IMG/VR virus record: IMGVR_UViG_3300010340_000454
Coordinates: 32,001-96,000 of that record
Strand: one strand, 5' to 3'
DNA: 64,000 bases
Source: a virus
Lineage: Duplodnaviria > Caudoviricetes
The translations under genes and the position numbers were made by a program. This document shows, in pieces, positions 21,262 through 63,302 of this stretch. Below the pieces are notes generated by a model, which had not been told where the DNA came from, searched no databases, and saw nothing but the letters and a program-made list of their open reading frames with translations. Position 1 is the first letter of the stretch. Every line of letters begins with the position of its first letter.

Positions 21262-23252
21262 TGACTGACCGCGTTAAGTCATTATCGACAATCCATCCAG
21301 ATTTCGACTACCTGGTAACCCAGCTCAGTAGCTACCTTAGCACTCGCCCTGTTTGGAAAGACCAACTGCGCTCGTCTACGGGCCAGTTTACGCTAGAGGT
21401 AGCAGCCGCTATTGGTGAATTAGATCAGTACTCTTTGGAACGCATCATGCAGGACGCTTTTCCGGAAACAGCAAAACTGGATAGCGCTGTATATGCTGCA
21501 ATGAAATCCTTGGGTACAAGATTAGGAAGAAAAAAGCCAGGTACTACTGTATTACCTCTGGCCGAAGTTACTACTCCTAACGGCCCTCCTGTTGGGTTTA
21601 CTCGTTTAAAAAGAACTACTAACGGCGCACCTCTGATTATTCCTCCAATGACGCAGTTCTCTACGTCTTTGGGTCTAATGTTCAATCGTAAAACTATTAG
21701 ATTCGACTCTGGTTCTTTTTTCGGGTATCAGGTTCCTGATTCTTCTATAGGAAAAGAAGCGATTGAGTTATACGAGGGTAGAGTAGAGACGCGCTACTTC
21801 TCTATGACAGGCGAAGATTTTGCCTCTATCTTTTCGGGCGAAGACAACTTTGTAATTTCGGATACTGACGTTTCTATTACGCTAGGGGCTGGCGGCACCT
21901 CAGCAGGCCCTATACCAAGACAGACCGTTGGCCTGTGGAACAATAAAAATAACTTACCAGGTTGGCAAGACATTACTACCTCAGATGGCAGACTACACGT
22001 ATTGTTTGGCAGTAGCGTTTACGGTACCATACCGGCAGCCAATCAGCTAGTAATCATGTCGTATGCTGTAACGAAAGGCGCTTCTGGTGATGGCGTTTTT
22101 CCAACGTATAAAGTAGCGTGCGAGGCTTTTCCTCAAATCGACTCTTCATACGACGTATTCGTAAGTACACCTACTCTGGCAGGGCCTGTTAATATCTCTG
22201 CAACCTCTATCTCCGGAGGTGTGAATGAGGTCTCCGCTTCCCAGTATAAAAAACTTGGTTCCCAGATTTTTGCTGCTGACCAAGGCAATAGGGCAGTACA
22301 ACAACAGGATTATGCTGCGGTAGTTAAGAGTTTCACCGGAGTATCTGACGCTTTGGTAATACCTCAGAGGGATCTAGACCCTAGCGACCTTAGATTTATG
22401 AATGTGGCAAAGATTGTTACGTATCCTAAAAATATGAACAATGCCGCATTCCAGCAGCTACTATCCTACGTAAATGCTCGTTCTATGATGAGCATGAATT
22501 TTTACAGGGAAGAACTCCCAGGAGGGGATCCGTTAGAGCCTTACATAAGACTAGTAGATTTAAAACTTAACGTGTACTGCGCCCAGAACGCCGACCTAGT
22601 TGGCATTAGAGACAACTACGTAGTACCTGCTATCCTTGGTCTTTTAGATAGGCAATGGACCGCGCTTAACCCGCGCCCGTCAGGCTCCTCGAAGATTAAC
22701 AGAAAAATAACAGTGTCGGACTTCACCACTGTTATAAAGAATGCTCACCCTAGCATAGACTATATTGTTTTGACGGAACCTAGCACAGATGTTTTGGCTA
22801 AGGTAGAAGCCCCTCTACCGACCCTAACCTTACTGAATACAGGATTAGGAACGTTCGGGAGTTTAGCTCAATTCTACTCCATTACAATAATAACTCCTAC
22901 AGGAGAAACTCTGCCTTCTCCTCCTGTCAGCATTTTCCTGGATGATTTAACAGACGAGGTTTCTATATCTGTAGACTTGCCTAGCAACTACATGAACACC
23001 TGGCTTGTCTTTAGAGTTTATAGAGGGCCTACTATTGATACTATGGCCCTAGTTAATCCTGCTCTAATTTCATGGAGCTACTCAGGAAATACAGGCACTG
23101 TACAGGATTCTGGCGTAGCGCTTACGGCAGCCACTCCACCTACTACTGATACTACAGGTGAATGGGTTATTAACTTGCCTAACAATTGGTCGCCTGTAGA
23201 TAAGGTATTTATGTTTAATTCTGAGCGCACACTAAGACTGCCTGGGACTTAA
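21261..23252 (+). CDS. Baseplate wedge protein gp6 / J-like
   Basis: FPETAKLDS, FG....G..P, Y..TKGASG, GG.NE and RAV..QDY motifs. Confidence 0.88.
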   Translation: MTDRVKSLSTIHPDFDYLVTQLSSYLSTRPVWKDQLRSSTGQFTLEVAAAIGELDQYSLERIMQDAFPETAKLDSAVYAAMKSLGTRLGRKKPGTTVLPLAEVTTPNGPPVGFTRLKRTTNGAPLIIPPMTQFSTSLGLMFNRKTIRFDSGSFFGYQVPDSSIGKEAIELYEGRVETRYFSMTGEDFASIFSGEDNFVISDTDVSITLGAGGTSAGPIPRQTVGLWNNKNNLPGWQDITTSDGRLHVLFGSSVYGTIPAANQLVIMSYAVTKGASGDGVFPTYKVACEAFPQIDSSYDVFVSTPTLAGPVNISATSISGGVNEVSASQYKKLGSQIFAADQGNRAVQQQDYAAVVKSFTGVSDALVIPQRDLDPSDLRFMNVAKIVTYPKNMNNAAFQQLLSYVNARSMMSMNFYREELPGGDPLEPYIRLVDLKLNVYCAQNADLVGIRDNYVVPAILGLLDRQWTALNPRPSGSSKINRKITVSDFTTVIKNAHPSIDYIVLTEPSTDVLAKVEAPLPTLTLLNTGLGTFGSLAQFYSITIITPTGETLPSPPVSIFLDDLTDEVSISVDLPSNYMNTWLVFRVYRGPTIDTMALVNPALISWSYSGNTGTVQDSGVALTAATPPTTDTTGEWVINLPNNWSPVDKVFMFNSERTLRLPGT

Positions 23253-23254
23253 TT

Positions 23255-24568
23255 ATGGCTAGATATAAGCTTATGCCTCCAAACTTCCAGGACTTAGAGT
23301 TCTGGAAGGAGTTCTGTGATGCTATCGACTACGTTTGGAAAAATGAAGTAGATAATCCTCAAAAGGCTTTCAGGCTGTTGCGTGACACCTATGCAATGAC
23401 CTTTGTGCCTTATGGCGAAAGCCCCGATAGCAGCTACCCAAATAACGAGTACGACCCATTAGAAGGCACAAAAGTATTCGATATTAACAATTTTTTCGAC
23501 TTCTCTAGGCAAGCAGAATCCGCAGAGTTTACGCTGGCTTCTCCAGAAAGTGTTATAAATTTAGCGTCTTACGGTGCCACTAACGTACAAACAGGTTACC
23601 CACAAACATTAGTAATTGTGTATAAGTGGAATGGGTCAAAGTGGTCTCAAATACCTCCTAGCCAATACGTTGCTACCTCACCGATAGAATTAACTTTTAG
23701 CTATGTTTTACCCTCAGGTACAAAGCTAAAGCTTGTAGAACGAATCTCTTCTCCAGAATTATCCTCACAGCTTAGGTATTTAGGGTTTCAATTTCCTAAT
23801 ACTGAATTTATTTCTAGGGCGTCTAGTGTATTAAAGTCACCCGCTTTGCAGGTTCTAGCATCCAATTATGGCAATTACTTAGCAGCTACTAAAGGAACGC
23901 CCCAGTTTTTTGATTTCTTTGGATTTTGCCTAGCTTCCGAATTTAGTGTTCGTAGGTTATGGGCTGAAGTTCCATACGCGCCTGCTTCAGTAAGCTATCA
24001 GGCTCAAGGCGCTCCTTATAAATACGATACTTCGCTAACGTTTAAAAAAGTGGTTAACCCTCCGAGTGTTCCACAAAACGGCATAACGCTGTCTACAAAT
24101 ATAAGTATTGATATTTACCCTTACACAAAGTCTAATGTAGACCTTTACATAAAAGGCCCTACTGAAACCAGCTACACACTTGTTCCTGTTTCTGACTACG
24201 ATCCAACGCCGGGCATTGCTAGCTCTTTTAACGTACTAAATTTCGGATCACCCCTAGCCATAGGTACTGAAATACTTATAATGTATAAACGCTCTAAAAT
24301 ACCTTACGGCATTCTCAGAGAAGAAGGTGATCCACTTATAGGAACTCCTGTGTGGGCAGGTGGCAATTGGTTTCCTACTTCCCATGTTAACCTTAGGTAC
24401 AACTTGCTTAAATACGGTGGAAGCTTGGATAGCAATGAAATACGAAAGTTTTTTGATTACGTTGCTAACCTAAACTTGGTGCTAGACTCCGTGATCCTGA
24501 GTGAGTCCGGCTCTATAGCCCCAGCCAACGTAGGCCTAGCCGCAAAAATGAAAATTACGCAGTTGTAA
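23255..24568 (+). CDS. Baseplate wedge protein (gp7 / I-like)
   Basis: Follows gp6; LGF and KGT motifs. Confidence 0.6.
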   Translation: MARYKLMPPNFQDLEFWKEFCDAIDYVWKNEVDNPQKAFRLLRDTYAMTFVPYGESPDSSYPNNEYDPLEGTKVFDINNFFDFSRQAESAEFTLASPESVINLASYGATNVQTGYPQTLVIVYKWNGSKWSQIPPSQYVATSPIELTFSYVLPSGTKLKLVERISSPELSSQLRYLGFQFPNTEFISRASSVLKSPALQVLASNYGNYLAATKGTPQFFDFFGFCLASEFSVRRLWAEVPYAPASVSYQAQGAPYKYDTSLTFKKVVNPPSVPQNGITLSTNISIDIYPYTKSNVDLYIKGPTETSYTLVPVSDYDPTPGIASSFNVLNFGSPLAIGTEILIMYKRSKIPYGILREEGDPLIGTPVWAGGNWFPTSHVNLRYNLLKYGGSLDSNEIRKFFDYVANLNLVLDSVILSESGSIAPANVGLAAKMKITQL

Positions 24569-31390: not shown

Positions 31391-31400
31391 GTGAAACACG

Positions 31401-31433
31401 AGGAAAGGCTGCTTTTGTGGCCTTTCCTTACTT
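31401..31433 (+). terminator. Rho-independent terminator
   Basis: AGGAAAGGC...GCCTTTCCT stem. Confidence 0.7.
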
Positions 31434-31453: not shown

Positions 31454-32629
31454 ATGGCAGGTTTTCTGAATAGCTTTAGCCCTATTGTTGCAGGTAGCTC
31501 AGGAACTACTGCAATTCAGTTTATACTGCCACCCGGCACGGATGCGTCCTTAGGCAGTATTACTTACAAGCTTCAAGACCCTGACGGTATTGTCTACGCA
31601 TCAGGTAACGCTATAGGGTATAGTGTGACTGCTGCTCCTAATGCTGTACAGGTTAACGGAACTATTGTGTTAGCTATTCCAGATAGCATACCAACTAACA
31701 CAGTAGGGACCGCTTACCAAGTCTCCATGACGCTAACACTACCTGGCCAGAACTCGGTTATGCAGAATGCCTTGGTTACGGTTCTGCCCAACACTATGGT
31801 TGCAACAGGTGCGTCCGATACTGTAATTATTCAAGGCAACTTGTCGGAACTAGAGTTAGTACTACCTAATGTAGAGGCTTACGTTACAGCAAACTTCTAC
31901 CGGGACAACGACATAATTAACCCTACGCCCCCGACAGTCACAGGGCCTGTAGCAACTTCTGACGGGTATAGGTACACCATCAGTGTTAACACTTCCCAGA
32001 TTCCTCCATCCCTAGAACCTTATGGTGTTATTTGGTTGTTTGGGGATAGTAACGTCTCTATATCTGACCAAGAACAGTCGGCTGTTTACATAGTTACGCC
32101 TACACAAATTCAGGCTGCTAAGGACTTGATGTTGCGTATCAATAAAGCGAGAACAAGCATCGGAGACAAGCCTACTTTCTCAGTTACCGAAATGTTCTCC
32201 TATTTGCGTCGTGGTATGGACTGGTTCAACTCCACTGGAGTAGCTACTTCGTTTACTATGACGAATGCGAAGTACGGTACCCGAGAATTTTGGTTGAAGT
32301 TTTCCGAAGTTATCGCGTTACGCGCTCAGTATATGTTTGAAGGTGAAACCGCTTTCGACTTCCAAGGACAGGCAATATCTCTTAACGTGGATCGCGCCCA
32401 ATACTACGAAGGCCTCGCTTCTTCTATTGAAAATGAAGCGATGGAGCCTACTCGTCAGTACAAGCAGCAACTAGGTAAACGGGGCAATACAGGAGGTGAT
32501 GGATCAGTAAATCCGAATACTCTGAGGCATGGAGCAATCGGTAGCGTAGGTATCTCGCTGACGCCTGTGTCTAATATTCGCCTTGGTAACCCCAACTCTT
32601 ATTTCTTCGGCATTCGGCCTTTCTGGTGA
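31454..32629 (+). CDS. Putative neck / head-tail adaptor protein with Ig-like N-terminal part
   Basis: The C-terminal FQGQAISLNVDRAQYY resembles neck (gp13-type) proteins; the N-terminus is beta-rich. Confidence 0.45.
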   Translation: MAGFLNSFSPIVAGSSGTTAIQFILPPGTDASLGSITYKLQDPDGIVYASGNAIGYSVTAAPNAVQVNGTIVLAIPDSIPTNTVGTAYQVSMTLTLPGQNSVMQNALVTVLPNTMVATGASDTVIIQGNLSELELVLPNVEAYVTANFYRDNDIINPTPPTVTGPVATSDGYRYTISVNTSQIPPSLEPYGVIWLFGDSNVSISDQEQSAVYIVTPTQIQAAKDLMLRINKARTSIGDKPTFSVTEMFSYLRRGMDWFNSTGVATSFTMTNAKYGTREFWLKFSEVIALRAQYMFEGETAFDFQGQAISLNVDRAQYYEGLASSIENEAMEPTRQYKQQLGKRGNTGGDGSVNPNTLRHGAIGSVGISLTPVSNIRLGNPNSYFFGIRPFW

Positions 32630-32633
32630 CAAA

Positions 32634-32960
32634 ATGAAAACTTTAGAACTTGCAAAGAAGGCAGTAGCTAGACTTAAGGAAGTCTCTGCAAATAAACATG
32701 TACCGTCTAGTCGATGGGAAGTCGTTGAGGATAAAAAACTCAAAGGTTCCTCTCATTCTGGTTTTCTAAAACTAGTTTATAGAGGTCACACGCTGCATAT
32801 AGGAGCTGCCCCTGGACCTAAAGGCTACACTGGGTATATAGATCGCAAACTCGTCATTACCCCAGACGTGGCACTTTATGATGGGGCACCTGGCCGATCC
32901 AAGCTAGCCTTTAAGTTGCAGGAAATGATAGATACGTCACTAAACAAAAAGGGAGCATAA
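32634..32960 (+). CDS. MKTLEL-leader family protein (leader only, no DHP motif)
   Basis: Starts MKTLELAKKAVARLKEVSA; ATG 32634 is preferred to the track's start at 32583. Confidence 0.75.
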   Translation: MKTLELAKKAVARLKEVSANKHVPSSRWEVVEDKKLKGSSHSGFLKLVYRGHTLHIGAAPGPKGYTGYIDRKLVITPDVALYDGAPGRSKLAFKLQEMIDTSLNKKGA

Positions 32961-32962
32961 TC

Positions 32963-33409
32963 GTGCCTAAACTTGTACGCGCAAATCAGGAACCAGATTT
33001 TGAGTTACATGGACAAATCGTCCAGTTCTTCCTAGATAACCCTTCTGCTAGCGACGCTCAGGTGCACACTTGGTCTACTTCGCTCGGTGTCGAACCCGAA
33101 ATTATGGAAGCCGCTATCTACAAGTTGCTTTCTAGCCTGCTTCGAGCTATTGGAAAACACAATCATATTCCAGACGTTTCTCTTGACCAAATACAATTGG
33201 ACCAAGGCATACGTATCGAAATGGAACACACTGATATTCCGTTCATTGCCAAGATGATTGCTAAAGATCACCTTGTGGAATGCCCTGAGTACTACACATA
33301 CTTAGCGAAAGCGGAGTCGGATTGCGCTAATGGGGAAATGACAGATAGAACCCCTCTCATTACAGTATCTTCTGTTTTGAAGAATATAAAGAAGGCCAAA
33401 GGAAAATGA
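32963..33409 (+). CDS. DUF5661-like protein
   Basis: GIRIEMEHT...AKMIAKDHL.E.PEYY..L motif. Confidence 0.7.
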   Translation: MPKLVRANQEPDFELHGQIVQFFLDNPSASDAQVHTWSTSLGVEPEIMEAAIYKLLSSLLRAIGKHNHIPDVSLDQIQLDQGIRIEMEHTDIPFIAKMIAKDHLVECPEYYTYLAKAESDCANGEMTDRTPLITVSSVLKNIKKAKGK

Positions 33410-34287
33410 AAACCATTAGTTTCGCTTTAGCTGCCATACAAAGAATAGAAGTTGCTAAACAAACTAGCGAATGGTGGGAGTCCCAAAGCGACTCTTTCAA
33501 AGAACAATACATTAAAGACCACCCTAGATCCAAGTTTGCCCGAGAGGCTAGGGCCTTAGAAGATAAGGAAGGCAAGCACGCAAAAAAGTATTCGGAAGTT
33601 TTCGATAAAGACTTCTATACTGCCAAGAAGCCTTCTCCTAAGGATAAGGAGGCTCCCAAGAAGAGTCCTCCGAAATCGTTAATGCCTACTGCGGTTAAAG
33701 CATTAGACTACGCATCAGAGGAATTTTTTAAACAAGCAACAAGTTCAATCAATAGGTTCTTAAATGTAGATACCTTTGATTTAACGCCTCTACATGTTAA
33801 GTCCTTAAAATTACTAGACTCCGCAATAAGCAAAAAATTACAAGTCTATGCCAAGCAAAAGGCACAGATACGTAAACAGCAAAAGGTATTGCAGTCTAAG
33901 TTAAAGAAGGCAACTACTAAGGAAGAGAAAGCCGCAGTCAAGAGAGAAATATCCAAACTAGAGACTTCCCATAATAGGATAACTCGCCAGGAGCAAGGCC
34001 TTACTAAAAGCCATGCCGCATTGGTTGAAAAACATCCTGGTGTTCTAAAGAACGTAAACACTATTAGGAAGCAGCGTAAGGCTCGTGCAGAGAAAAAATC
34101 TAACGAGGCTAAGATCAATAAAGAGATAACTAAACTGAAGTCTAGTCTAGCTAAAGTACAGAAAGCAATGGAAGCTTCTACAGATTCTAAGGAGCGCAGA
34201 CAATACCGCGCAAAGATCAGGGAAATAAAAGCAGAGATAGTTTTAAAAACCAAAGAACTTAAATCCAACAGCAAGGTGAACCCATGA
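33406..34287 (+). CDS. Lys-rich leader-family protein (divergent)
   Basis: MKTISFALAAIQRIEVA leader and WW...YIKDHPRSKF motif; coiled-coil basic body. Confidence 0.75.
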   Translation: MKTISFALAAIQRIEVAKQTSEWWESQSDSFKEQYIKDHPRSKFAREARALEDKEGKHAKKYSEVFDKDFYTAKKPSPKDKEAPKKSPPKSLMPTAVKALDYASEEFFKQATSSINRFLNVDTFDLTPLHVKSLKLLDSAISKKLQVYAKQKAQIRKQQKVLQSKLKKATTKEEKAAVKREISKLETSHNRITRQEQGLTKSHAALVEKHPGVLKNVNTIRKQRKARAEKKSNEAKINKEITKLKSSLAKVQKAMEASTDSKERRQYRAKIREIKAEIVLKTKELKSNSKVNP

Positions 34288-34694
34288 AAACATTAGAACT
34301 AGCCAAGAAAGCCATAACCCGCATAGCAGAAGTAGCCGTAACCCAAGATCAATTCGACGCTTGGAATTCAACTAAGAAGAGACAGTGGTTGAAAGACCAC
34401 CCTACAAGTAAGTTTGGGAAGAAGCCTGCAGGTAAAGCTAAACCTACTGGTGGTAAATCCCCTAAGAGTAAACTTAAAGAACAGAAGACTGACCCTAAAG
34501 TTCAAAAACTATTGGACCTAAAGAAAAGCTTGGAAGATAAATGGGACGCCCTAGATGAAGAATACGAACGTATTCGCAGAACAACTAATACAGGGATGAG
34601 CCGCAGCCGAGAAAACGATAAGCTAGACTCAATAAATAGGCGAAAGGAAAAGATAGAGATTAAGCTAGACGAAATAGAAGATAAATTGCCCTGA
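34284..34694 (+). CDS. MKTLEL-leader family protein
   Basis: Leader followed by QWLKDHPTSKFG. Confidence 0.8.
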   Translation: MKTLELAKKAITRIAEVAVTQDQFDAWNSTKKRQWLKDHPTSKFGKKPAGKAKPTGGKSPKSKLKEQKTDPKVQKLLDLKKSLEDKWDALDEEYERIRRTTNTGMSRSRENDKLDSINRRKEKIEIKLDEIEDKLP

Positions 34695-34718
34695 TTATAA
34701 CCAATAGAGGAAAGCGAA

Positions 34719-34937
34719 ATGGAAAATAAAAGCTTCATTTATTCCAAGACCAATATCTTCGCTATTCTGCTAGCTATTCTGGTGCAGTTCCAAGAGTATA
34801 TTCCTATGCTTCAGGATATTGCACCAGCTGAGTTATACAAGCAGATCGCTATTTGGGTTCCTGTTGCTATCGTGGTTCTTCGTGCTATGACCACAAGCGG
34901 CATTTCGCCTAGACTGCCTTGGTCTACTAGCAAGTAA
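34719..34937 (+). CDS. Small two-TM membrane protein (holin-like)
   Basis: Two hydrophobic segments and a LRAMTT motif; GAGG RBS. Confidence 0.55.
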   Translation: MENKSFIYSKTNIFAILLAILVQFQEYIPMLQDIAPAELYKQIAIWVPVAIVVLRAMTTSGISPRLPWSTSK

Positions 34938-34979
34938 GGAAAAATTGGACAAGGACGTCCTTCATCCAGGTAAAAAATT

Positions 34980-35588
34980 ATGCCAATAATCTCCTCTAAG
35001 AAAAAGCTTTCTTCTAAAGGTAAAGACGAAAGCAAGAAGGAATCCAAAGTAAAGAAACCGAAACACCTAAAAGAATTTAGTAAGGAACTAGACTTAGACT
35101 CCATAAAAGACACACAGTCTTACTTAAAAGACAAGTCTAGAAAAATCCGCAAGCTTGTTAAGAACGGGGAGAACGATGCTGCTGCGGAAATGATTATGAA
35201 GTCGCTTACTTCTGTCCTAGTTGACCTGCTCCCTATCGCTGAGGAACGTTATAGGTCAGACCCTAGGCAGGGTAACGCTTACGCTTTCAATAACTTGGTG
35301 TCTACAGCAAGAGAACTTGTAGCAGACCTCCAAGCTAACACAGATAAGTCGGTTGTGGTTAACAACATTATTTTCAACATTCTACAGCCTTCTTCTACAA
35401 CCATCGTTACCTTCCTTATTGATACCAATTTCTCCTTCAAGAAAGAATTAGCAGGCTACATTAAGCCTGAACATGCGAAAGACGCTAACGACGTTATCGA
35501 CAAAATGTCTAAGAGTTATGTGTCTTTCCTCAAAGCAGTATTGGTTGACATTCAAGACCGCATTTCACAAGCCTTACAGGATGCTTAA
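34980..35588 (+). CDS. Hypothetical helical protein with Lys-rich N-terminus
   Basis: 202-aa ORF within the operon. Confidence 0.65.
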   Translation: MPIISSKKKLSSKGKDESKKESKVKKPKHLKEFSKELDLDSIKDTQSYLKDKSRKIRKLVKNGENDAAAEMIMKSLTSVLVDLLPIAEERYRSDPRQGNAYAFNNLVSTARELVADLQANTDKSVVVNNIIFNILQPSSTTIVTFLIDTNFSFKKELAGYIKPEHAKDANDVIDKMSKSYVSFLKAVLVDIQDRISQALQDA

Positions 35589-35590
35589 TC

Positions 35591-36397
35591 ATGCACACTT
35601 TAGAACTAGCCAAGAAGGCGGTAGAGCGTTTAGCAGAAGTGGCAATTACCCAAGAGCACTTTGACTCCTGGGACTCCGCAAAACAGAAACAGTGGCTCAA
35701 GGATCACCCTAACAGCAAGTTTGGTAAGAAGCCTGCAGGTAAAGCCCCTAAAAATAAACCTATTAAGCAGGCAGATTTGAAGAAAGCGGCTACACCGACA
35801 ACCCCAAAAGAAAAATACGTAACCTACAAACCTAAGTTTACGGAAGTCCCTAGCGGTATTGAGGCTATAATTATAGATAAGCCTCGTACTGAGGAAGACA
35901 GAAAGAAGTCGGCTAAAATACTGAAAGAATTTGAAGAAGACCTGAACAACCAAGTAAAACACATGCAGGAGAATACAGGTCATGGCTACACTCAATCTGC
36001 GGTGCGTTCTCTTGCAGATAGAAGTCATAAAGTAATAGACGTGGCTAGGAAACTGGAGCCTATAGTAGACGACTTTAATGTTGCAATGAGAGGATTCATA
36101 AAAGTTCGAGACTCAAAAGACCCTGAAAAAATTCAAGCCGCGGCTCGAGGAATAGATAAGGTGCTGTGGTCGACCCGTCAATTTAGAGGCCCTGCACTCA
36201 CCCTTGTAAAGAAAGGGCGTATCCTTAAGTCGGTTTCTCCTTTAGCCAAAGGCTGTACTATGCGACTGGAATACATGGCTAAGGCTAGAGATGCTGCTCT
36301 TAAGGAAGCTAAACACGCAGGGTTGACCGATACCCAAAAAGACGCGGCGGCTAAACGTTCAGCTAGTATGCGTGCTCGTTGGGGTAGTATGTACTAA
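35591..36397 (+). CDS. MKTLEL-leader family protein (MHTLEL)
   Basis: Leader followed by QWLKDHPNSKFG. Confidence 0.8.
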   Translation: MHTLELAKKAVERLAEVAITQEHFDSWDSAKQKQWLKDHPNSKFGKKPAGKAPKNKPIKQADLKKAATPTTPKEKYVTYKPKFTEVPSGIEAIIIDKPRTEEDRKKSAKILKEFEEDLNNQVKHMQENTGHGYTQSAVRSLADRSHKVIDVARKLEPIVDDFNVAMRGFIKVRDSKDPEKIQAAARGIDKVLWSTRQFRGPALTLVKKGRILKSVSPLAKGCTMRLEYMAKARDAALKEAKHAGLTDTQKDAAAKRSASMRARWGSMY

Positions 36398-36473
36398 TGC
36401 CTGCAAAAAAGAAATAGGGTCAAACAGTCTCTTACATAACAAACGTCATAATCACATGGTAGGACGAAAATGA
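36397..36473 (+). pseudogene. Internally deleted copy of the HNH gene at 37264
   Basis: Reads MPAKKK*GQTVSY fused to HNKRHNHMVGRK*, matching both ends of the intact gene (MPAKKKWGQTGSY...HNKRHKHMIGRK*). Confidence 0.9.
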
Positions 36474-37261
36474 AAACATTGGAACTGGCCAAGAAGGCCG
36501 TAACCCGCATCGCGGAAGTGGCAATTACCCAAGAGCACTTTGACTCCTGGGATTCCAGAAAACAGAAACAGTGGCTTAAGGATCACCCTAACAGTAAGTT
36601 TGGTAAGAAGGAAGCCCCAAAAGCAGGCAGGCCAATTAAGCAGGCTGATCTAAAGAAGTCATCCCAGAAAGAGCCTGAGATTCATTCAAACGTTAAACTT
36701 AAACCTTTCACCCTTAAGGAAGTAGATAAGGAAAAGTTGAAAAAAGCTATTAAAAAAGCTGACGAAGCTTATCGTAAAAGGCTTACAGAGGACTTAAACG
36801 CTAGCGTAGCCTACTTCACTAAACAACTAAAAACCCCTTTAGATCCTAGGTATAAAAAAATCGTAGAACATACCTTAAAAAACCTCACTAAGAAACTTGA
36901 TAAAGTTAAACAACCGTTTAAACCTGGAACTGAAGCTTACAAGTCTATTGTAGACCCTGTCATAGCCAAAATGAGGCAGGCCCATAATAAGGCCGAACTG
37001 AATAGGGTACGTAAGCTTCTTCCTTTGAGTACCCAGAAACAGCTTAATTCATTAGACGCCAAGGTTAAAGCCTTAGACAGCCAGCTAGCTAAGTTACGTA
37101 GTAGTCTGCGCCTAAATGCTAAGAAAGGTATAGCAGGAAACGAAGTGCTTCGTAACGAAGCGGAAGACAAAATAGACATGATTAAGGCACAAATAGAGCG
37201 TATCGAAGAGAAAATTCGAGACGTATTTGACAAAGCAACAAAAGCATACAAGCCTAAATAA
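36470..37261 (+). CDS. MKTLEL-leader family protein
   Basis: Leader followed by QWLKDHPNSKFG. Confidence 0.8.
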   Translation: MKTLELAKKAVTRIAEVAITQEHFDSWDSRKQKQWLKDHPNSKFGKKEAPKAGRPIKQADLKKSSQKEPEIHSNVKLKPFTLKEVDKEKLKKAIKKADEAYRKRLTEDLNASVAYFTKQLKTPLDPRYKKIVEHTLKNLTKKLDKVKQPFKPGTEAYKSIVDPVIAKMRQAHNKAELNRVRKLLPLSTQKQLNSLDAKVKALDSQLAKLRSSLRLNAKKGIAGNEVLRNEAEDKIDMIKAQIERIEEKIRDVFDKATKAYKPK

Positions 37262-37263
37262 CA

Positions 37264-37548
37264 ATGCCTGCAAAAAAGAAGTGGGGCCAAACAGGCTCGT
37301 ACCGAACTAAAGGCGGAACTGTAGCTAAGATACAAAAGCACACGTATCCGCCTAACTGGCGGGAAATATGCAAAGACAAGATACGTGAGGCAGGAGGAAG
37401 GTGTCAAAGGTGCCCTAGCGAAGACAGATTAGAGGTGCACCATATTATAGCGTTGTCTAGAGGTGGTACAAATCATCCCTTAAACCTTATAGTGCTTTGT
37501 TATACGTGCCATAATAAACGACACAAACACATGATAGGCAGGAAATGA
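37264..37548 (+). CDS. Small HNH endonuclease
   Basis: CQRC..LEVHHII..GGTN..NL..LCYTCHNKRH motif. Confidence 0.92.
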   Translation: MPAKKKWGQTGSYRTKGGTVAKIQKHTYPPNWREICKDKIREAGGRCQRCPSEDRLEVHHIIALSRGGTNHPLNLIVLCYTCHNKRHKHMIGRK

Positions 37549-38015
37549 AAACGTTAGAACTAGCCAAGAAAGCCGTAGAACGTTTAGCGGAAACTGCGGT
37601 TACCCAGAAGCAGTTTGACGCTTGGAATTCTACTAAGAAGAGACAGTGGCTTAAGGATCATCCTACGAGTAAGTTCGGAAAGCCTACGGATAAACCTATA
37701 GATAAGTACACCTCTAAGAGTGATTCACTAAAAAATGAAATTTCAGGCTTACGAAAGCAACAGCAACTTTTAAAGTCTAAGATGCGAGCCTTAAATAGAA
37801 AAATTAACCTACTAGAAAAAGATACAACTATAGACGATGATACCGCAGTAAAAAAGATTGACCGTTATTACGATACTATCCATGAATTGCAGAATAAGGA
37901 AGAGTCTATTAGTGCCCGTATCAAAAAGTTAGAGTCTGCTCTAGTAAAAGGGCGACACATCCGCTCCGATAGTAAGGGACTTTTTTATCACAGAAATGAT
38001 GATAAATTCAAATAA
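37545..38015 (+). CDS. MKTLEL-leader family protein
   Basis: Leader followed by QWLKDHPTSKFG. Confidence 0.8.
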   Translation: MKTLELAKKAVERLAETAVTQKQFDAWNSTKKRQWLKDHPTSKFGKPTDKPIDKYTSKSDSLKNEISGLRKQQQLLKSKMRALNRKINLLEKDTTIDDDTAVKKIDRYYDTIHELQNKEESISARIKKLESALVKGRHIRSDSKGLFYHRNDDKFK

Positions 38016-38478: not shown

Positions 38479-41400
38479 ATGCAAACTTTGATCGCACGTA
38501 CCCCAGTGACTGCCGCTGACGCTGGTATACTGAGGCCTACTTTCGGTGTAGATTTTTCTGCATTCGGTACAAAGGGTGCCGATGTACGTAAGATGCCTGC
38601 AGCGGTTCCAGGAACTTTTTTAGACTTGCTTACCCCAGCCGTATCTGCCAAGAAACGTGACCGTTATTCGTTCACCCCTAAGGGGCTTACCCAAGTCTTT
38701 GGCCGCGCGTTAGCCCGAGACTTGGCTGGTGCTATACTTCCTGACGACAAGCGTTCTGACCTGGAGATTACTAAGTTCTTTGACGAAGAGGAACTGCGTA
38801 AACTTTACACAGGTGTTACACCTTCGTTAGCAAAGCTAGTTCGCGTAAAGCGCGAAGGCAATAGCTGGATGCTCTCTTTGCCTATCCTTGCCATTAACCT
38901 AAGCTCTTTGATTAGAGACTGCATGAAACCGTATGAAGGCGAACCAACTTCTTACGTAGCTGCTGAACTTAACCGAATAGCTACATACGTTCTCCCTACG
39001 CTACGTGCCTTAGGGTGGCGTTTCGATAGCGCTCAAGTTAAATTCGATATTCCTAAGAATCGAGTCGGTACCTCACTTCACGGTGACTACTTACAGGCTA
39101 ATCAATTCTTTACTAAATACGTTAGAGGGTTTAGTGTCGAAGGAAATCACAAGGCAGCTTTTATCCGCACCCGTAATGGAGATGCGGCAACTACACTTGC
39201 GGAAGTTCCTATAGGCGAACCTGAAACGCTAGGAGCATTTATTAGAGGTGCGATGGAAACAAACTACATCGTTTACGCTAATGTTTTCCTGCCAGATGAA
39301 GAAGCTCCTTATTACTTTCAACAGCCTTCTGATGATGTTAAGCCGGGCACTGTTCTGGATTTTTTCTATCGCTGGTATCGTTATGCGTTCACTACTAAGA
39401 TAGAGTTGCCTACATTTACTCACCCTATTTCGGCACCCGTTAAGAAAAATGCAGCGTTTACGCCGCGCCCGAGAACCAACAACATCGGGCTTGTCCTAAC
39501 TAATAGGAATACTTTGCTTTATGTGCCCAACGACGCTAATGAGCTAGAAGCTTTTGAAGCTAGCTACTCTGAGCTAGCGGAAGCCGAAGAAGGTTATTAC
39601 ACTATCTCCAATAAAGGTGCAGCGGGCAAGAGTTCCAACATCACACACCGACTGCTGTACGTTGACTGGGTAAGCAACAAAATTATGTTTACCGGCGACA
39701 CCCCTAACATCCAGACCATAGACCTGGAAGCAACCTACAAGCCTAGCGCTGCTTCTATTGTTAAGCGATTGCTATGGACCTTTAGCTTCGATACCATTAA
39801 CACCATTGTTGCACCTATTGCAGCACGAAATAAAAAGGTGTTTGGCCAGGAAGATAGTCTAAAAAACTTTGCTTCCGCCGCTGAAATAGACAACCTAATA
39901 AATACACTTGTTTCTATTAACAATGTTTCAGGTAGAGCTTTTGCCCGAAGCGTACACGCTGACATGACTATTGAGGCATATTCGCTTGCTGCGCTTTCCT
40001 TCTTGTTCGACATTAACGAAGGCGGGAATAAGCGCTATAACGAAACTATTACAGCCGAGTTTACCTCTTATCCTGTACAGTTGCGTGATATTGTAACTAA
40101 CTCGGCAAATCCTCTACTTATTCCTATTGCTCGCTGGATTAAAGAAACCCATACTAAGGTAATGAAAGACCCGCTAAACTACATAAATAGTTGCGGAACT
40201 TCTCCTGCGGCCACTATGGAACACCTAGGTTTCCTTCTGCTGTTCAACGAAGCCGTAAAGTTTAAAGAATTAAAGATTGAAGACTACAACGAGCGCAAGG
40301 TTTACTTTGAACAGGATGAGTTGGACGAAGACTACGTACCTGCATTCAAAAATTCTGACGGCGTAGAAAAGCTGCTCCCTCACCAGGCCAAAGTCCTAAA
40401 CGCCAATAGAAAAATTCCTAAGTTTTCTATTATTGCAGTGGCAGCAGGCGGTGGTAAAACCATTATAGCTATCGAAGACATTATGAGGGCACTAGAAGAG
40501 GGGATAGTAAAGAAGCCTCTCGTAATTTGTCCTTCCTACCTTATGAAAGACTACGTAGCGGAAGTAAACTATGTATCCCAAGGTAAAACTAACGTTGTGG
40601 TATTTGACACCTCCGTTTTCAACGCTTACTCCAAGACTCCTGATACTTTTACAACGGGTCAGCGGGACTACTCTAAGCTGAAGGCTCTAGTAGATAACGC
40701 CCCTATTAACACTATCTATGTTACTGGATATGACACGTATGCTAGGTCAGGTAATCAATCCTCGGTGTACGGTGGGGAACTCGTATACTCTAATAGTCAT
40801 ATTGAGTTTATGCGGTCGTGTAATTTCGACGGCGTTTGGATGGATGAATCGCACTTCCTAAAAGCATCGGGCTCCAATCGAGCTATCGCGACCGAGACAC
40901 TTATCGCCGAGATTCCGTACAAGAGATTGCTGACAGGAACCATAGCGCCTAATAGCCTTGTGGATTTGGTTAGACAGGTTAGTTATTTCAGCCCAGACAT
41001 TTTAGGTAGCGAATCAGAGTTCCGCGTACGCTTCTCAGAAGATGGTTCGGACTCAGGCGCTTTTGTGGCTAGAAAAGGTGCGGAGTATGAAATTTTTAAG
41101 GAGCTAAAGAATCAGGTTGTGTTCCAAAACGTGCAGCGTAAGGAATGGGCAGCTTTGCTCCCTCGTATGCACGAACACTTTATACCTGCTTATCTAACGT
41201 CTAACCAAAAGAAAGTGTACGATATTCTTATCGGCGATATGGTGGACAAAATGTCCTCAGACTCTGAGGTTAAGACTTTTCTTAAGGAAGAACAGTCCGC
41301 AGACGTAGGAGACGCAGACGATATTGAACACGTTTTTGAGAACTACGAGGAAAATCTATCTGCTATAGAATCTTTCTTGGCTTCCCCTATGTCTACACCT

Positions 41401-43344
41401 ATGTCAGAAGAAATGCTAGTTAGCCCTGAAGATCGTGTTTCCCCTAAAGGGAAAGAAGTTTTAGAGATTATCAGAACGCACTTATCTAATCCAACGCAGT
41501 ACCCAGGCAAGATTATAGTTTTTTGTAATACTTACGCCTCGGTTGAGGGTATTTTCCGACAGTTCCCTCCTGAAATTCAGGCTGTTACGGTTAAATACTC
41601 CGCAGAAACAAAGACGGAAGATGAAGCTGAATTTAAGACTAACCCTAAGAAACGTGTGATTATAGGCATTTCGCAGTCTATGGAGACAGGCTTGAACCTG
41701 CAGATTGCGGATACTTTGATTCGCGTGGATAATGTGTGGAGCCCAGGTCGCTTTGAACAAGGCCTTGCACGAGTGAACCGCCCTAATCTAAAAGACAAAG
41801 GCGGCGACCCTCGTATGAAGACGGGCATCCACATGTACTACATTATGGTCGACCGCACTATCGACGTCCTAAAGACAGCGCGACTGACCTCTAAGACTGT
41901 GCAAATTGCCAAATTCTATAACGCAGGCACTGAGGACTATGTCCACTATGAGAACATAGGGTTTAATGCGGACGGAACACCTTTAGAGCCTATACGGGTC
42001 TCCATGGAAAACTTGAGACATGGACTAACCTATAGCGAAGACCTAATGCCTTATATGGAAGCCTACGAGCAGTATAGAGAGGCCGAAGATACTGTGTTTG
42101 ACGAGTATCAGAAAGCTCACCCTGAGCTTGTTCCTGTTGAGGTAAAACACACGGGTCTGCTAAAAGGCTCTAAGCTGCTAACACGTATCCCGTACACTCC
42201 AGGCATGTCTATTTTTGCTGCTGACAAGCTGGGTCTTGTACCTTACCCAACCTATAAGCGCCAATTCATAGAAAAGTACGGGGAAGCTCGGTGGGACCCG
42301 TCTAACCTTCCAGTACACACGGAATATGGTGAAGGGAATATAGGCAATGCCCGAGTAAACCATATTAGCGTACATTTGACCTCCGGCGGTACTGCTAACT
42401 TACAACCTTCCGTTATTTTTGTTATTACTAAGAAAGTAACGTCTACGAAGGAAATCCGACAGACACTCGCTGATATTGTTGGACTAGAAGGCTTAGAAAT
42501 TCAGCTAGAAAACTTTAGAGTAGAGAAACGCAAAGCACGAAAAGAGGCAAGGGAGCAAAGGTTAGCACAACGCGAGCTTGAGAAGCAAATGCGCTTAGCC
42601 GAACGTCAAAAGCGTAAGGAAGAAAAGCTACAGCCTACTGAAGTAGTGCGTGAGGACAAGCGCCGTAAGAAAGACGCGGAAGAGGAAATGATCGCGCCTG
42701 CTGACATGGAGGAGAACAGCACTATTAGTCTCTACCTGACTCTTACTAACGACATGATTTCCTTAGCGACCTCCGCAGACGACCCTGACGCTAACTACAG
42801 GGAACTGAAACCTTACGGGTTCAACCTAGTACGCCCCTATTGGTATCTTGAGTTGAAACAGGCAGCCGCGCTAGACACCTTTATTGACAAGCTAGATCAA
42901 ATGTCGCAGAAAGGAACTATTGTTATCAATGATAAATACTTCTACATGTTGGAAGACATTTATAATGAGTTCAAACAAGGTAGAAGCAAGCTACTACAGG
43001 TGTCTCAACGAACCACTACAGAAATTGGTCACTTCCTTATAGACCGTCGCCGTAAGATTACAAATCCGCTAGAGATTCGCCCTGTTCCTATGATCGTAGA
43101 TGGTAGTCTATACATCTGTATGGATACGCTCATTCACAATCCCGCTATTGTTCAAAAGGTTAAGCGTATTCAGGTCCCTGGAGTTAAGTGGGAACTGCAA
43201 GATGATGCACTGATAGCCTTCTTCACTAGAAAGTCGGAAGTTATGAGCACAGTCAAGGAGCTTAAGGCAGACGGCTTCATTATTGAAAACGAAGCGGAGC
43301 TTAAGGAAGCATACAATCAACTTAAAGTAAGAGGCGTAAAATGA
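38479..43344 (+). CDS. Large SNF2/SWI2-family ATPase
   Basis: LLPHQ, AGGGKT, DESH, LTGT, ETGLNLQ and QGLARVNR helicase motifs. Confidence 0.9.
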   Translation: MQTLIARTPVTAADAGILRPTFGVDFSAFGTKGADVRKMPAAVPGTFLDLLTPAVSAKKRDRYSFTPKGLTQVFGRALARDLAGAILPDDKRSDLEITKFFDEEELRKLYTGVTPSLAKLVRVKREGNSWMLSLPILAINLSSLIRDCMKPYEGEPTSYVAAELNRIATYVLPTLRALGWRFDSAQVKFDIPKNRVGTSLHGDYLQANQFFTKYVRGFSVEGNHKAAFIRTRNGDAATTLAEVPIGEPETLGAFIRGAMETNYIVYANVFLPDEEAPYYFQQPSDDVKPGTVLDFFYRWYRYAFTTKIELPTFTHPISAPVKKNAAFTPRPRTNNIGLVLTNRNTLLYVPNDANELEAFEASYSELAEAEEGYYTISNKGAAGKSSNITHRLLYVDWVSNKIMFTGDTPNIQTIDLEATYKPSAASIVKRLLWTFSFDTINTIVAPIAARNKKVFGQEDSLKNFASAAEIDNLINTLVSINNVSGRAFARSVHADMTIEAYSLAALSFLFDINEGGNKRYNETITAEFTSYPVQLRDIVTNSANPLLIPIARWIKETHTKVMKDPLNYINSCGTSPAATMEHLGFLLLFNEAVKFKELKIEDYNERKVYFEQDELDEDYVPAFKNSDGVEKLLPHQAKVLNANRKIPKFSIIAVAAGGGKTIIAIEDIMRALEEGIVKKPLVICPSYLMKDYVAEVNYVSQGKTNVVVFDTSVFNAYSKTPDTFTTGQRDYSKLKALVDNAPINTIYVTGYDTYARSGNQSSVYGGELVYSNSHIEFMRSCNFDGVWMDESHFLKASGSNRAIATETLIAEIPYKRLLTGTIAPNSLVDLVRQVSYFSPDILGSESEFRVRFSEDGSDSGAFVARKGAEYEIFKELKNQVVFQNVQRKEWAALLPRMHEHFIPAYLTSNQKKVYDILIGDMVDKMSSDSEVKTFLKEEQSADVGDADDIEHVFENYEENLSAIESFLASPMSTPMSEEMLVSPEDRVSPKGKEVLEIIRTHLSNPTQYPGKIIVFCNTYASVEGIFRQFPPEIQAVTVKYSAETKTEDEAEFKTNPKKRVIIGISQSMETGLNLQIADTLIRVDNVWSPGRFEQGLARVNRPNLKDKGGDPRMKTGIHMYYIMVDRTIDVLKTARLTSKTVQIAKFYNAGTEDYVHYENIGFNADGTPLEPIRVSMENLRHGLTYSEDLMPYMEAYEQYREAEDTVFDEYQKAHPELVPVEVKHTGLLKGSKLLTRIPYTPGMSIFAADKLGLVPYPTYKRQFIEKYGEARWDPSNLPVHTEYGEGNIGNARVNHISVHLTSGGTANLQPSVIFVITKKVTSTKEIRQTLADIVGLEGLEIQLENFRVEKRKARKEAREQRLAQRELEKQMRLAERQKRKEEKLQPTEVVREDKRRKKDAEEEMIAPADMEENSTISLYLTLTNDMISLATSADDPDANYRELKPYGFNLVRPYWYLELKQAAALDTFIDKLDQMSQKGTIVINDKYFYMLEDIYNEFKQGRSKLLQVSQRTTTEIGHFLIDRRRKITNPLEIRPVPMIVDGSLYICMDTLIHNPAIVQKVKRIQVPGVKWELQDDALIAFFTRKSEVMSTVKELKADGFIIENEAELKEAYNQLKVRGVK

Positions 43345-55766: not shown

Positions 55767-56366
55767 ATGGAAAACCCTTTCGGTAATTTAGCTCCTATTA
55801 TACCTGCTATTATAGACATAGACCCTGAAAACTTCGACACCAAAGTGTTCGCTACTAACAAAAAGAAGAAGACTAAGGAAATTTATGACCCCGCTAAGCC
55901 GAAATCCCGGTTTTTCTCTGACAAGAGAGGCTCTCGCTTTTTAGAGATTAAGGCCCGCAGAAAAACCTTACGAGAACTTAGGCAGGAGTGGGAAGCCACT
56001 ATTCGTCCTAAGGATGAAATTATTGAGGAAAAGGTAGAAGTCAAAGTATCTAAAAAAGAAAAAGCAGACTTTTTGGAGGCTCTTCATAAGAACACTGACA
56101 GCCTACACCAATTCTTTCTAAAAGAAATTCTGCCTGTATACACCGCTATTGACCCTGCATTACGCCAAACCGTAGAGTCGGCTTCACACATCGTAGGAGA
56201 TGATGCGGATTTATACCTTAGCGACGACCTACTAAATATGATTGACGACGCTATTAACCTTAAAGTATTCCATTTCATTTGTGATAAGCTCTTTGTGGAC
56301 GAAAAAACCAAGAAGCTAATACAGTCCCGGTACTTTACTCCTGTTGAACGGAAGCCTAAAAAATGA
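55767..56366 (+). CDS. Hypothetical protein (terminase small subunit candidate by position)
   Basis: Overlaps the start of the large terminase. Confidence 0.45.
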   Translation: MENPFGNLAPIIPAIIDIDPENFDTKVFATNKKKKTKEIYDPAKPKSRFFSDKRGSRFLEIKARRKTLRELRQEWEATIRPKDEIIEEKVEVKVSKKEKADFLEALHKNTDSLHQFFLKEILPVYTAIDPALRQTVESASHIVGDDADLYLSDDLLNMIDDAINLKVFHFICDKLFVDEKTKKLIQSRYFTPVERKPKK

Positions 56367-58570: not shown

Positions 58571-58589
58571 TCCGTAGCAGCTTTTCCTA

Positions 58590-58606
58590 TTTCTGACTAA
58601 TTTTAT
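58590..58606 (+). promoter_or_regulatory. Putative late-promoter motif A (TTTCTGACTAATTTTAT)
   Basis: The identical 17-mer occurs at 63834; this copy is upstream of the portal operon. Confidence 0.65.
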
Positions 58607-58631
58607 ATTAGAAACTACGAGGACATGTAAT

Positions 58632-58826
58632 ATGGAACGCATAAATCCTTTGGTGGCTGCTGCTACCAACCCTGAGAGAATTAAAGAGACAGCAAAACAC
58701 AATACGTTAGAAAGCGTAGAAAACTGTCCTGTGTGCGCCAAACAGATGCGCGTAATTTTGGCAAACAAAATTCCTTCCTTTGTTTGCCTAGCTGACCGTA
58801 TTTCTTTTCCAACAAAAGATGATTAA
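58632..58826 (+). CDS. Small Cys-motif (zinc-ribbon-like) protein
   Basis: CPVC...C motif; GAGGA RBS. Confidence 0.6.
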   Translation: MERINPLVAAATNPERIKETAKHNTLESVENCPVCAKQMRVILANKIPSFVCLADRISFPTKDD

Positions 58827-58829
58827 GCC

Positions 58830-60659: not shown

Positions 60660-61280
60660 ATGGTGAAGGCACTCCCAATTAAAATAAATTCGTTCAGACC
60701 TCGCCATCAAGTTTACTACGTAGGCATTGATGGCGTATTTAATGCAGGCGCCGACAAATACTATATAAGCAAAGTTCTTATGCAAAAGCTTATCCAGATA
60801 TGTTCCTATTGCAAAAAATATGGAAAGTCGGTTACCGCTGTATTAAATTCTAAAGTGGTTCCTGACTATATACCTAGCTTGTTGTCTACGTTAGGCGTTA
60901 ATCTTCTATCTGTCGTTAATGACCCACTAGCTACTATATACAGCGATTTCCTAGTTAATGAAGAACCCTCAAAGTTTATAGCCGACAACACCGAAGTTGT
61001 TATTGTTATAAAAGGAGAGGAAGATGACTATGACGTGGATACAGAAACTCCTTTGGTTTTTATAAAATACCCTACGCTAAGTACTAGAGAAAAGCGTACC
61101 GATGAACCAGGAGAGGTAGTCGAAGGCTTTAACGAAGTATTTCGTTCCAACAATAATCCGTATGGCGTATTCGATTTAGGTGAGCAAGGGCGTCGCGTGG
61201 ATGATGACTATATGGAGCGCATAATGCAGGCCCCTGAGCCTACAGGAATCCCTAAACCTTTACGTCGCAGCAGTTCTTGA
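60660..61280 (+). CDS. Hypothetical protein
   Basis: Abuts the portal stop codon. Confidence 0.6.
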   Translation: MVKALPIKINSFRPRHQVYYVGIDGVFNAGADKYYISKVLMQKLIQICSYCKKYGKSVTAVLNSKVVPDYIPSLLSTLGVNLLSVVNDPLATIYSDFLVNEEPSKFIADNTEVVIVIKGEEDDYDVDTETPLVFIKYPTLSTREKRTDEPGEVVEGFNEVFRSNNNPYGVFDLGEQGRRVDDDYMERIMQAPEPTGIPKPLRRSSS

Positions 61281-61289
61281 GGATAGATT

Positions 61290-62960: not shown

Positions 62961-63302
62961 ATGAAACATTCTCTAAATATGTTTACTGTTACCTTAGCTA
63001 ATAAAGCTTTAAGACGACTAGAAAAATCGAGTGTTACTCCAGAAAGTGCCGACATTTTTCAAGTGTATGTAGAAAACTACCTTGGACGCATGTTTGACTT
63101 TGACTTGTCCACTGATTACTCAGTAGCTACCAAAGAACTGTCTTTTGTTTTCACTAACATAGAAGGGGTCGGTTTTACTTCTTCCTTTCCTAAAGCTTTA
63201 GAATACGCATTCAACTTAACTAAAGGTCTTTCTGATATGGAGCTTCTTACCAAAGAAAGGAAAGCAGGCACTAAACAATCTTATGTAGTGAGGTTATCCT
63301 AA
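62961..63302 (+). CDS. Hypothetical protein
   Basis: 113-aa ORF coupled to an upstream mini-ORF. Confidence 0.6.
   Translation: MKHSLNMFTVTLANKALRRLEKSSVTPESADIFQVYVENYLGRMFDFDLSTDYSVATKELSFVFTNIEGVGFTSSFPKALEYAFNLTKGLSDMELLTKERKAGTKQSYVVRLS

Follow-up and report, generated by a model that had tools for sequence, protein, structure and literature searches.

Why should a run of neighboring phage genes begin with the same short stretch of protein and then continue into bodies that are unrelated to one another? The question is raised by a locus at positions 32634 to 38015 of a 64,000-nucleotide (nt) stretch of viral DNA (the window), which corresponds to bases 32001 to 96000 of a 114,429-bp viral contig in IMG/VR with a CheckV completeness of 45%. 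A sequence-only reading of the window had noted six genes here, at 32634, 33406, 34284, 35591, 36470, and 37545, with a common leader (divergent in 33406), and had interpreted them as an addressing system that loads swappable cargo into the phage head for ejection. All six open reading frames (ORFs) are present on the plus strand at these starts, and the ORF check together with alignments bore out the common leader. We found that the leader and a motif downstream of it are parts of a single small module that is carried by many otherwise unrelated viral proteins, and we tentatively read this module as a tag for loading ejected cargo into the head, similar in kind to the capsid-targeting sequence (CTS) of phage T4 but unrelated to it.

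A conserved module in an array of basic proteins

In alignments, the leader reads MKTLELAKKA(V/I)xR(L/I)AE(V/T)A, with MKTISFALAAIQRIEVA as the divergent version in 33406. Five of the six genes continue into the motif W-x7-(W/Y)(L/I)KDHPxSKF, as the sequence-only reading had stated, and 32634 has the leader only. A more permissive pattern, W..(W/Y)(L/I)(K/R)(D/E)HPxSK(F/I), covers the same five genes plus a gene at 63885 and a protein encoded at the start of the contig. A six-frame translation of the 114-kb contig contains the string HPxSK seven times, each time within this family; about one occurrence is expected by chance according to a rough estimate from residue frequencies. Judged by these alignments, leader and motif form one module of ~45 amino acids (aa).

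The module is under strong purifying selection. Over codons 1 to 46 of the four closest paralogues, synonymous divergence (dS) ranges from 0.5 to more than 2 and is thus near saturation, whereas nonsynonymous divergence (dN) is ~0.1 (dN/dS of ~0.07 to 0.14). Therefore, the near identity of the leaders has been maintained by selection on the protein rather than by recent duplication, and recent gene conversion was rejected as its cause on the same grounds. The exception is the pair 35591 and 36470, where a dS of 0.24 in the core versus 1.13 in the leader fits recombination between the two parts.

A logo of the whole family, anchored on the HP dipeptide, begins with R-L-x-E-V-A-x-T (A in 50% and T/S in 59% of sequences) and continues with (W/Q)(F/W), which is aromatic in 99%, L/W/M at position -12, Q/K at -7, Y/W at -4 (100%), and L/I at -3; it ends with H-P-x-S-K-(F/Y)-(A/G)-K, after which the sequence is rich in lysine. 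In the AlphaFold2 model of the 34284 protein (m9503a927e811), the core consists of two short, confidently predicted helices (residues 21 to 26 and 29 to 38; predicted local distance difference test score, pLDDT, ~95), and a separate leader helix (residues 3 to 14) is predicted with less confidence (pLDDT ~69). A linker at residues 45 to 70 then leads to a confidently predicted hairpin (residues 71 to 134). The module is thus an amphipathic leader helix joined to a two-helix core that ends in HPxSK(F/Y)(A/G)K.

The two parts can be separated. The 32634 protein consists of MKTLELAKKAVARLKEVSAN followed by a small non-helical body without the HPxSK core, another protein (P0009) also starts with a leader that has no core, and in one relative (L077:16646-17764) a basic spacer of 14 aa lies between leader and core. 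In the syntenic locus of Ralstonia phage phiRSL1, between its connector and helicase genes (66 to 70 kb; L009), the products of ORF123, ORF124, ORF126, and ORF127 share the N terminus M.Y(D/N)I.AA..RL..(T/S) and lack the HPxSK core; their likeness to the leader is mainly by eye, with E values of 0.18 and 0.29 for two of them in a search with a leader hidden Markov model (HMM).

We found no convincing match to the module in Pfam or PHROG, where the sole overlap was a weak one between residues 20 to 104 of the 36470 protein and phrog_6154, a family of unknown function (E 0.002). The best hit of a profile search against the PDB (E 0.072) was a chance match to IdeS, and an Atlas search with the module returned no usable feature match and structural neighbors that are uninformative for 55 residues. 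Term searches of the polyvalent-protein paper (PMC5512222) and of a jumbo-phage comparative paper found no mention of the module. A likeness to HMG boxes (W..LS..Q..Y..HP..KY versus the C-terminal half of SOX/HMG boxes) was dropped, as no search supported it and its spacing was off by ~12 residues.

Family size, position, and cargo

A profile built from seven N termini was searched against 1.84 billion representative proteins and detected 404 clusters at E ≤ 1e-3, 20 of them at E ≤ 1e-10. Thus, what the sequence-only reading had described as a phage-specific leader plus a separate motif is instead one widespread module. Positions could be compared in 149 representatives of 150 clusters listed among the 404. 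In 120 of these 149, the HP dipeptide falls at residues 21 to 47, at the extreme N terminus, and the leader has a fairly constant length. In the other 29 the module is internal only, and some proteins have two to four copies. A divergent subtype, RTQDW..YL.KYPG(S/T)KF, is found at the C terminus of proteins of 300 to 450 aa encoded near capsid genes. The sequence-only reading had also implied that the leader is cut off by a protease; however, a module that occurs internally, C-terminally, and in tandem cannot generally act by simple removal of an N-terminal propeptide. In the polyvalent proteins, (R)LLAALGI(T)AD precedes the internal copies, which thus retain a leader-like helix.

The sequence-only reading had suggested comparing the C termini of relatives by means of profiles, and this comparison revealed a conserved tag followed by unrelated and, in part, enzymatic cargo. 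Most tails have no known domain, and it is the long carriers that hold enzyme domains. P0013 (2,530 aa) combines LPD1, HNH, and RelA/SpoT domains with four interspersed copies of the module; P0057 (1,802 aa) has a 2H phosphoesterase, an HNH domain, and a Zeta toxin with three copies; P0136 has InPase and module copies; and in P0035 and P0055 topoisomerase IB (Topo IB) is fused directly to the module. Among the 80 members of at least 200 aa that we scanned with Pfam, Topo IB was found in four, and ADPrib_exo_Tox, GNAT, and ankyrin domains in one each. Some tails, such as that of P0113 with its KKPAAKK repeats, look like histone H1. The simplest summary of these domain architectures is that the array consists of tag-cargo units left unfused and that such units are strung together in the polyvalent proteins.

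The family is apparently restricted to viruses and virtually absent from cellular genomes. A peptide-pattern scan of 596 Gb of prokaryote genomes matched 49 stretches, of which one was confirmed and proved spurious, and the absence is limited to the pattern used. That candidate, from a metagenome-assembled genome of Phycisphaeraceae, was rejected because it is a match of 17 residues in an unlikely frame, beside a gene that its translation suggests is pheS-like. Among 50,697 phage records, megablast with the locus and tblastn with 36470 and with the consensus-like P0097 gave no matches; the members in isolated phages were found afterwards by HMM scans of whole records.

Genes of the array and its genome

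The genes of the array, and those elsewhere on the contig that bear on it, are as follows.

31454 to 32629, plus strand: head-tail connector homologue, 391 aa (phrog_17327, E 4.6e-46; 35% identity to phiRSL1 ORF118)
32634 to 32960, plus strand: leader-only member, 108 aa, isoelectric point (pI) 9.95 (leader HMM E 1e-12; its ATG lies within a longer TTG frame)
32963 to 33409, plus strand: acidic DUF5661 protein, 148 aa, pI 5.45 (PF18905, E 1.8e-9)
33406 to 34287, plus strand: member with the divergent leader, 293 aa, pI 10.1, 24% K+R (module HMM E 1e-16)
34284 to 34694, plus strand: member, 136 aa, with module, disordered basic linker, and helical hairpin (alignment and AlphaFold2 model)
34719 to 34937, plus strand: 72-aa ORF with two hydrophobic stretches and neither leader nor core, of uncertain membership (translation only)
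34980 to 35588, plus strand: basic protein without the module, 202 aa, pI 9.35 (phrog_23026, E 4e-7)
35591 to 36397, plus strand: member, 268 aa (alignment; body shared with P0156)
36398 to 36469, plus strand: intergenic remnant whose last ~40 nt are ~80% identical to the 3' end of the HNH gene before 37545
36470 to 37261, plus strand: member, 263 aa, pI 10.0, with an orphan body (alignment)
37264 to 37548, plus strand: HNH endonuclease, 94 aa, inserted in the array (PF01844, E 2e-12)
37545 to 38015, plus strand: member, 156 aa, pI 9.85 (alignment)
61290 to 62075, plus strand: prohead maturation protease, 261 aa, candidate processing enzyme (phrog_18299, E 2e-69)
62961 to 63302, plus strand: protein of 113 aa in the head-gene cluster with a leader-like N terminus, ..TLANKALRRLEKSSVT (leader HMM E 0.008, in a scan of all N termini of the contig)
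63885 to 64000, plus strand: seventh member, 260 aa, of which the window holds the start only (complete in the parent contig, L007:1423-2205; ends at window-equivalent 64667)
Contig bases 1 to 1020 (L020:1-1020), outside the window, minus strand: eighth copy, with the module at residues ~301 to 340 of a protein of 340 aa or more that runs off the contig end

The bodies of the array members had been described as unrelated, basic coiled coils. They are indeed basic (pI 9.8 to 10.1, 19 to 26% K+R), and the tails show no convincing pairwise similarity except for a linker of ~34 aa common to 35591 and 36470 and one weak coiled-coil match; coiled coil, however, is only part of their predicted structure. 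A Pfam scan detected no domain in these bodies. That of 36470 matched only itself in a search of 5.8 billion clusters at near length (144 to 461 aa). Residues 87 to 267 of the 35591 protein, on the other hand, recur as the C-terminal domain of P0156, a 905-aa protein of the polyvalent type (BLASTP E 5e-6 over 191 residues), and the extreme C terminus of 35591, KRSA.MR.RWGSM(Y/S), is common to P0011 and P0156; this motif could act as a further conserved signal at the terminus.

Some features of the array point to rearrangement and to possible partners. The remnant upstream of 36470 suggests that a unit of HNH gene plus member was duplicated and that one copy then seems to have lost its HNH gene; an HNH gene is also found at the syntenic place in phiRSL1, Burkholderia phage BcepSaruman, L017, and G005. 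G005, the closest relative, has a counterpart of the 34980 protein at the syntenic position (41% identity to L078:4437-5096). The DUF5661 protein recurs as a companion of such genes: in G005, as here, it is embedded among leader genes, and in L014 a homologue lies immediately upstream of a module gene; the phiRSL1 ORF125 product, encoded between ORF124 and ORF126, was likened to it by eye only. This acidic protein might serve the basic members as a partner or chaperone.

The partial gene at 63885 was correctly suspected to be a further member: it is complete in the parent contig and carries YLREHPHSKF after a divergent, longer leader. It lies within the portal-protease cluster, two genes upstream of a Topo IB gene, and its orthologue in G005 (41% identical; L079:7300-8043) keeps the order KTSC gene, member, small gene, Topo IB. 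Two other genes between the prohead protease and this member encode an Acb1/2H-type phosphoesterase (PF23474, E 5e-14; window 62370 to 62918) and the KTSC-domain protein (window 63302 to 63781). The Topo IB homologue (708 aa; L019:2006-4132, window-equivalent 65006 to 67132) has an additional N-terminal region of ~190 aa.

The eighth copy has a different kind of cargo. The N-terminal domain of this protein has a fold like that of the DNA ADP-ribosyltransferase DarT (Foldseek E 3e-4, probability 1.0, to Thermus DarT), and an Atlas search likewise pointed to DarT. In its full-length relatives (P0031, P0155, and P0156), the module is followed by a further domain that has a DGHHR motif and that we take to be ParB-like.

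The contig also encodes tail sheath, tube, and baseplate proteins, an SNF2 helicase (1,621 aa), and a DNA polymerase; large terminase, portal, and prohead protease lie at window positions 56363 to 62075. Because the connector homologue is ~35% identical to those of phiRSL1, the Burkholderia phages BcepSaruman and BCSR5, and Achromobacter phage Motura, we assign the source, on this similarity, to the broad phiRSL1/BcepSaruman group of jumbo myoviruses, as an uncultured member. The array begins 4 nt past the connector stop codon, and throughout it the spacers are short or the genes overlap. A strong terminator-like hairpin of 13 bp (31400 to 31429) lies just 5' of the connector gene, and no comparable hairpin was found on the plus strand inside the array. 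The SNF2-type protein (38479 to 43344) is always encoded 3' of the connector-array locus in this clade (phiRSL1 ORF129, BcepSaruman gp088, L017, and G005), and its N terminus, MQTLIARTPVTAAD, is faintly leader-like; phage P1 packages DarB, a large helicase-type protein.

Gene neighborhoods in related phages

Neighborhoods were drawn from IMG/VR loci and phage records only and are thus biased towards this clade. In every related jumbo-phage record whose surroundings we examined, module genes lie beside protease, connector, or tail genes. They adjoin connector homologues in L010, L015, and L017, the protease in L015, a neck-region gene in L018 and L010, and the sheath gene in L011. BcepSaruman gp075 (576 aa, three modules) directly follows the tail tube gene in an operon of protease, major capsid protein, sheath, and tube, and P0013 is encoded ~5 kb away from a TerL that shares its PHROG family with the TerL of the window. 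Related phages carry anywhere from 0 to 12 copies; a complete genome of 237 kb has ~12. G005, whose capsid protein is 69% identical, has five module genes, only one of which lies in the syntenic interval between connector and helicase, where there are six in the window; therefore, the six-gene array is a local expansion.

A possible tag for loading proteins into the head

A tag that directs proteins into the virion would be expected to be strongly selected while its cargo is hypervariable, to carry effector-type enzymes and to occur in polyvalent proteins, to lie among late structural genes, and to be restricted to viruses of one clade that encodes a prohead protease of the T4 type; the sequence data for the module agree with each of these expectations. 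If the module is such a tag, the tag-cargo genes would be expressed together with the late head and neck genes, and the tag would dock its cargo to an internal component of the prohead. The leader might then be trimmed by the prohead protease near R(L/I)AE↓VA, and the lysine-rich flank and basic body would come to sit on the packaged DNA. At infection, the proteins would exit together with the DNA, and their early targets would be the DNA of host or phage as well as host defenses. The array and the polyvalent proteins of relatives would be two layouts of one system, the latter with a copy of the tag between enzyme domains.

Several findings weigh against this scheme. The candidate cleavage site (L/I)-x-E is only weakly conserved across the family (E in ~20% at its position), although R(L/I)AE is present in four of the six array genes, and it is absent from internal copies (LLAALGI..). 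A core that can be internal, tandem, or C-terminal behaves as an autonomous domain rather than as a disposable propeptide. The module is patchy in the clade, with none found by HMM scans of phiRSL1, Lu11, JA11, Amme-1, and G006 to G008. The array also runs together with the genes for the SNF2 helicase and replication, which makes its late expression a matter of inference, and a literature search found no virion proteomics for phiRSL1, BcepSaruman, or other Sarumanvirus phages. Finally, a DNA-binding domain would account just as well for the conserved lysines, the lysine-rich flank, and the many cargo domains that act on DNA. A protein of 490 aa encoded two genes upstream of the capsid gene is acidic, has a conserved helical C-terminal domain, and looks scaffold-like; a complex prediction for the module with this domain scored 0.00, was run without controls, and weighs neither way.

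The last of these objections leads to the strongest alternative, which we judge somewhat unlikely: the module could be a small anchor for DNA or other nucleic acid (a helical hairpin, an HPxSK(F/Y)AK loop, and a lysine-rich tail) that tethers enzymes and histone-like basic proteins to DNA in the infected cell, with no need for packaging. Lysine or arginine is conserved at positions -2, +4, and +7 relative to HP, with the K-rich stretch behind them, the core is found at any position in a protein, and some tails resemble histone H1, as in P0113. Much of the cargo acts on DNA (Topo IB, HNH, the ParB-like DGHHR domain, and the DarT-like ADP-ribosyltransferase), and the array abuts a helicase gene just as the 63885 member is syntenic with Topo IB. 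Viral families with an N-terminal DNA-binding domain and variable C termini exist, namely Bro-N and KilA-N. These families form paralogous expansions in large viruses and combine a constant N-terminal module with shuffled C-terminal parts, as here; in contrast, our module is much smaller and has no Pfam match. Nor does it resemble any curated (Pfam) or solved (PDB) DNA-binding domain, and a general DNA binder virtually absent from cells, as the pattern-limited scan indicates, would be unusual. Tethering also leaves unexplained the strong N-terminal preference, the constant leader and the leader-only proteins, as well as the consistent placement among head and neck genes, and some cargo, such as Zeta toxin, RelA/SpoT, InPase, GNAT, and ankyrin domains, does not act on DNA. 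The two readings can be combined: the leader may address the protein while core and flank bind the packaged DNA.

It is improbable, in our view, that the array proteins are abundant structural components of the head interior, DNA-condensing or scaffold-like, with a common N terminus that reflects descent and an assembly contact and with tails that are fast-evolving basic filler. Lysines of T4 internal proteins contact packaged DNA (PMC3012670), the array bodies are basic coiled coils in part and carry no enzyme signature, and the genes stand together with head and neck genes; however, the same module carries clear enzymes elsewhere, and a copy number of 0 to 12, with one gene at the syntenic locus of G005 versus six here, argues for an accessory rather than a core structural role. 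Least probable is a role as an adaptor, in which the module would recruit cargo through protein-protein contacts to a single hub of the host or phage (RNA polymerase, replisome, or chaperone) for host takeover. The short, helical, strongly conserved module with its invariant aromatics and its many different effector domains would suit such a role, but there is no known candidate hub, two to four tandem copies and basic flanks are atypical of hub-binding motifs, and the structural-gene neighborhood would be left unexplained.

Thus, the proposed addressing system held up in part. A modular tag with unrelated cargo, a head or neck context in several phages, a prohead protease, and effector-type cargo speak for a head-loading tag, whereas tethering to DNA accounts for the basic flanks and the DNA-acting cargo about equally well. 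A broader version, in which the module is a general "load-me" tag of this jumbo-phage clade whose leader doubles as a cut mark for the prohead protease, and in which arrays and polyvalent proteins are interchangeable forms of one injected-effector system, we consider doubtful. The capsid protein of the clade (~340 to 360 aa; contig 23092 to 24168, L021:3092-4168) has a near-invariant (V/I)G..GE(V/L/I)NAS at residues ~25 to 40, after a variable N terminus. A scan of IMG/VR with the single capsid sequence found no relatives, and one with a two-sequence alignment found 36 homologues. GE(V/L/I)NAS is a candidate maturation cleavage site after Glu; since AE↓VA(I/V)T and KE↓VSAN in the leaders look similar, capsid protein and leaders may follow a common cleavage rule.

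Comparison with known systems

Internal proteins of T-even phages are diverse defence proteins that have only the CTS in common, which is removed by the protease gp21 (PMC3012670, PMC7411985). Like the array, IPI, IPII, IPIII, and Alt of T4 and its T-even relatives are unrelated, mostly basic proteins with a short N-terminal leader that starts with MKT and ends with (L/I)-A-E, and in both cases gene content turns over rapidly. Both phages encode a gp21-like prohead core protease; here, the enzyme matches phrog_18299, has no match in Pfam, and has homologues in relatives annotated as "putative prohead core protein protease." Cargo of the ADP-ribosyltransferase type also occurs in both (Alt in T4; ADPrib_exo_Tox and DarT-like domains here). 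On the other hand, we saw no sequence relation of the module to the CTS or to internal-protein families. The tag described here has ~45 aa and a strongly conserved core that is predicted to fold, whereas the CTS has ~10 aa; it also occurs internally, C-terminally, and in tandem; and its host phages are phiRSL1/BcepSaruman-like rather than Tevenvirinae. Cleavage and packaging are putative here.

In phiKZ-like giant phages, head-internal proteins (SPN3US gp53, gp54, and gp47) have N-terminal propeptides that are thought to target them to the prohead and that a gp21-like protease removes after A-x-E (PMC7411985). Ejection and inner-body proteins of this kind share with the array a giant myovirus as host; however, their propeptides measure 111 to 130 aa and show no relation in sequence, the phages belong to another clade, and the putative motif here would be (L/I)-A-E.

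Polyvalent proteins are argued to be packaged and injected by Iyer et al. 2017 (PMC5512222), and an early role after injection is predicted for them. The module is a component of polyvalent proteins with LPD1, Zeta toxin, RelA/SpoT, HNH, 2H, InPase, and ParB-like domains, and, as with the polyvalent proteins of that paper, its genes are encoded next to late or virion genes. Two or more disparate domains per polypeptide are found in P0013, P0057, P0136, and P0031, whereas each array gene combines the module with a single body. Two further differences are that no Pfam family, the LPD families included, matches the module, and that we did not detect MuF, which is known to anchor polyvalent proteins of phages in the virion.

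Implications for jumbo phages

Proteins that are packaged and ejected with the DNA are the first move of a phage against host defenses. How proteins are chosen for packaging is poorly known outside T4, P1, N4, and the phiKZ group. Proteins that share an address and are ejected or internal to the head were known before, as were polyvalent effectors; new is this putative tag, which is larger, folded, and unrelated to the T4 CTS and which links arrays to polyvalent proteins. One easily recognized tag connects hundreds of uncharacterized small basic proteins, the arrays of several jumbo phages, and polyvalent proteins, and a carrier that can be cultivated is available in Burkholderia phage BcepSaruman (gp075). 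If the module proves to be a DNA tether instead, it would be a new nucleic-acid-binding domain found only in viruses. If head loading is true, the module would allow injected effectors to be recognized by sequence in metagenomic jumbo phages and would offer a handle for packaging foreign proteins in large capsids, and it would explain how polyvalent proteins without MuF enter the virion.

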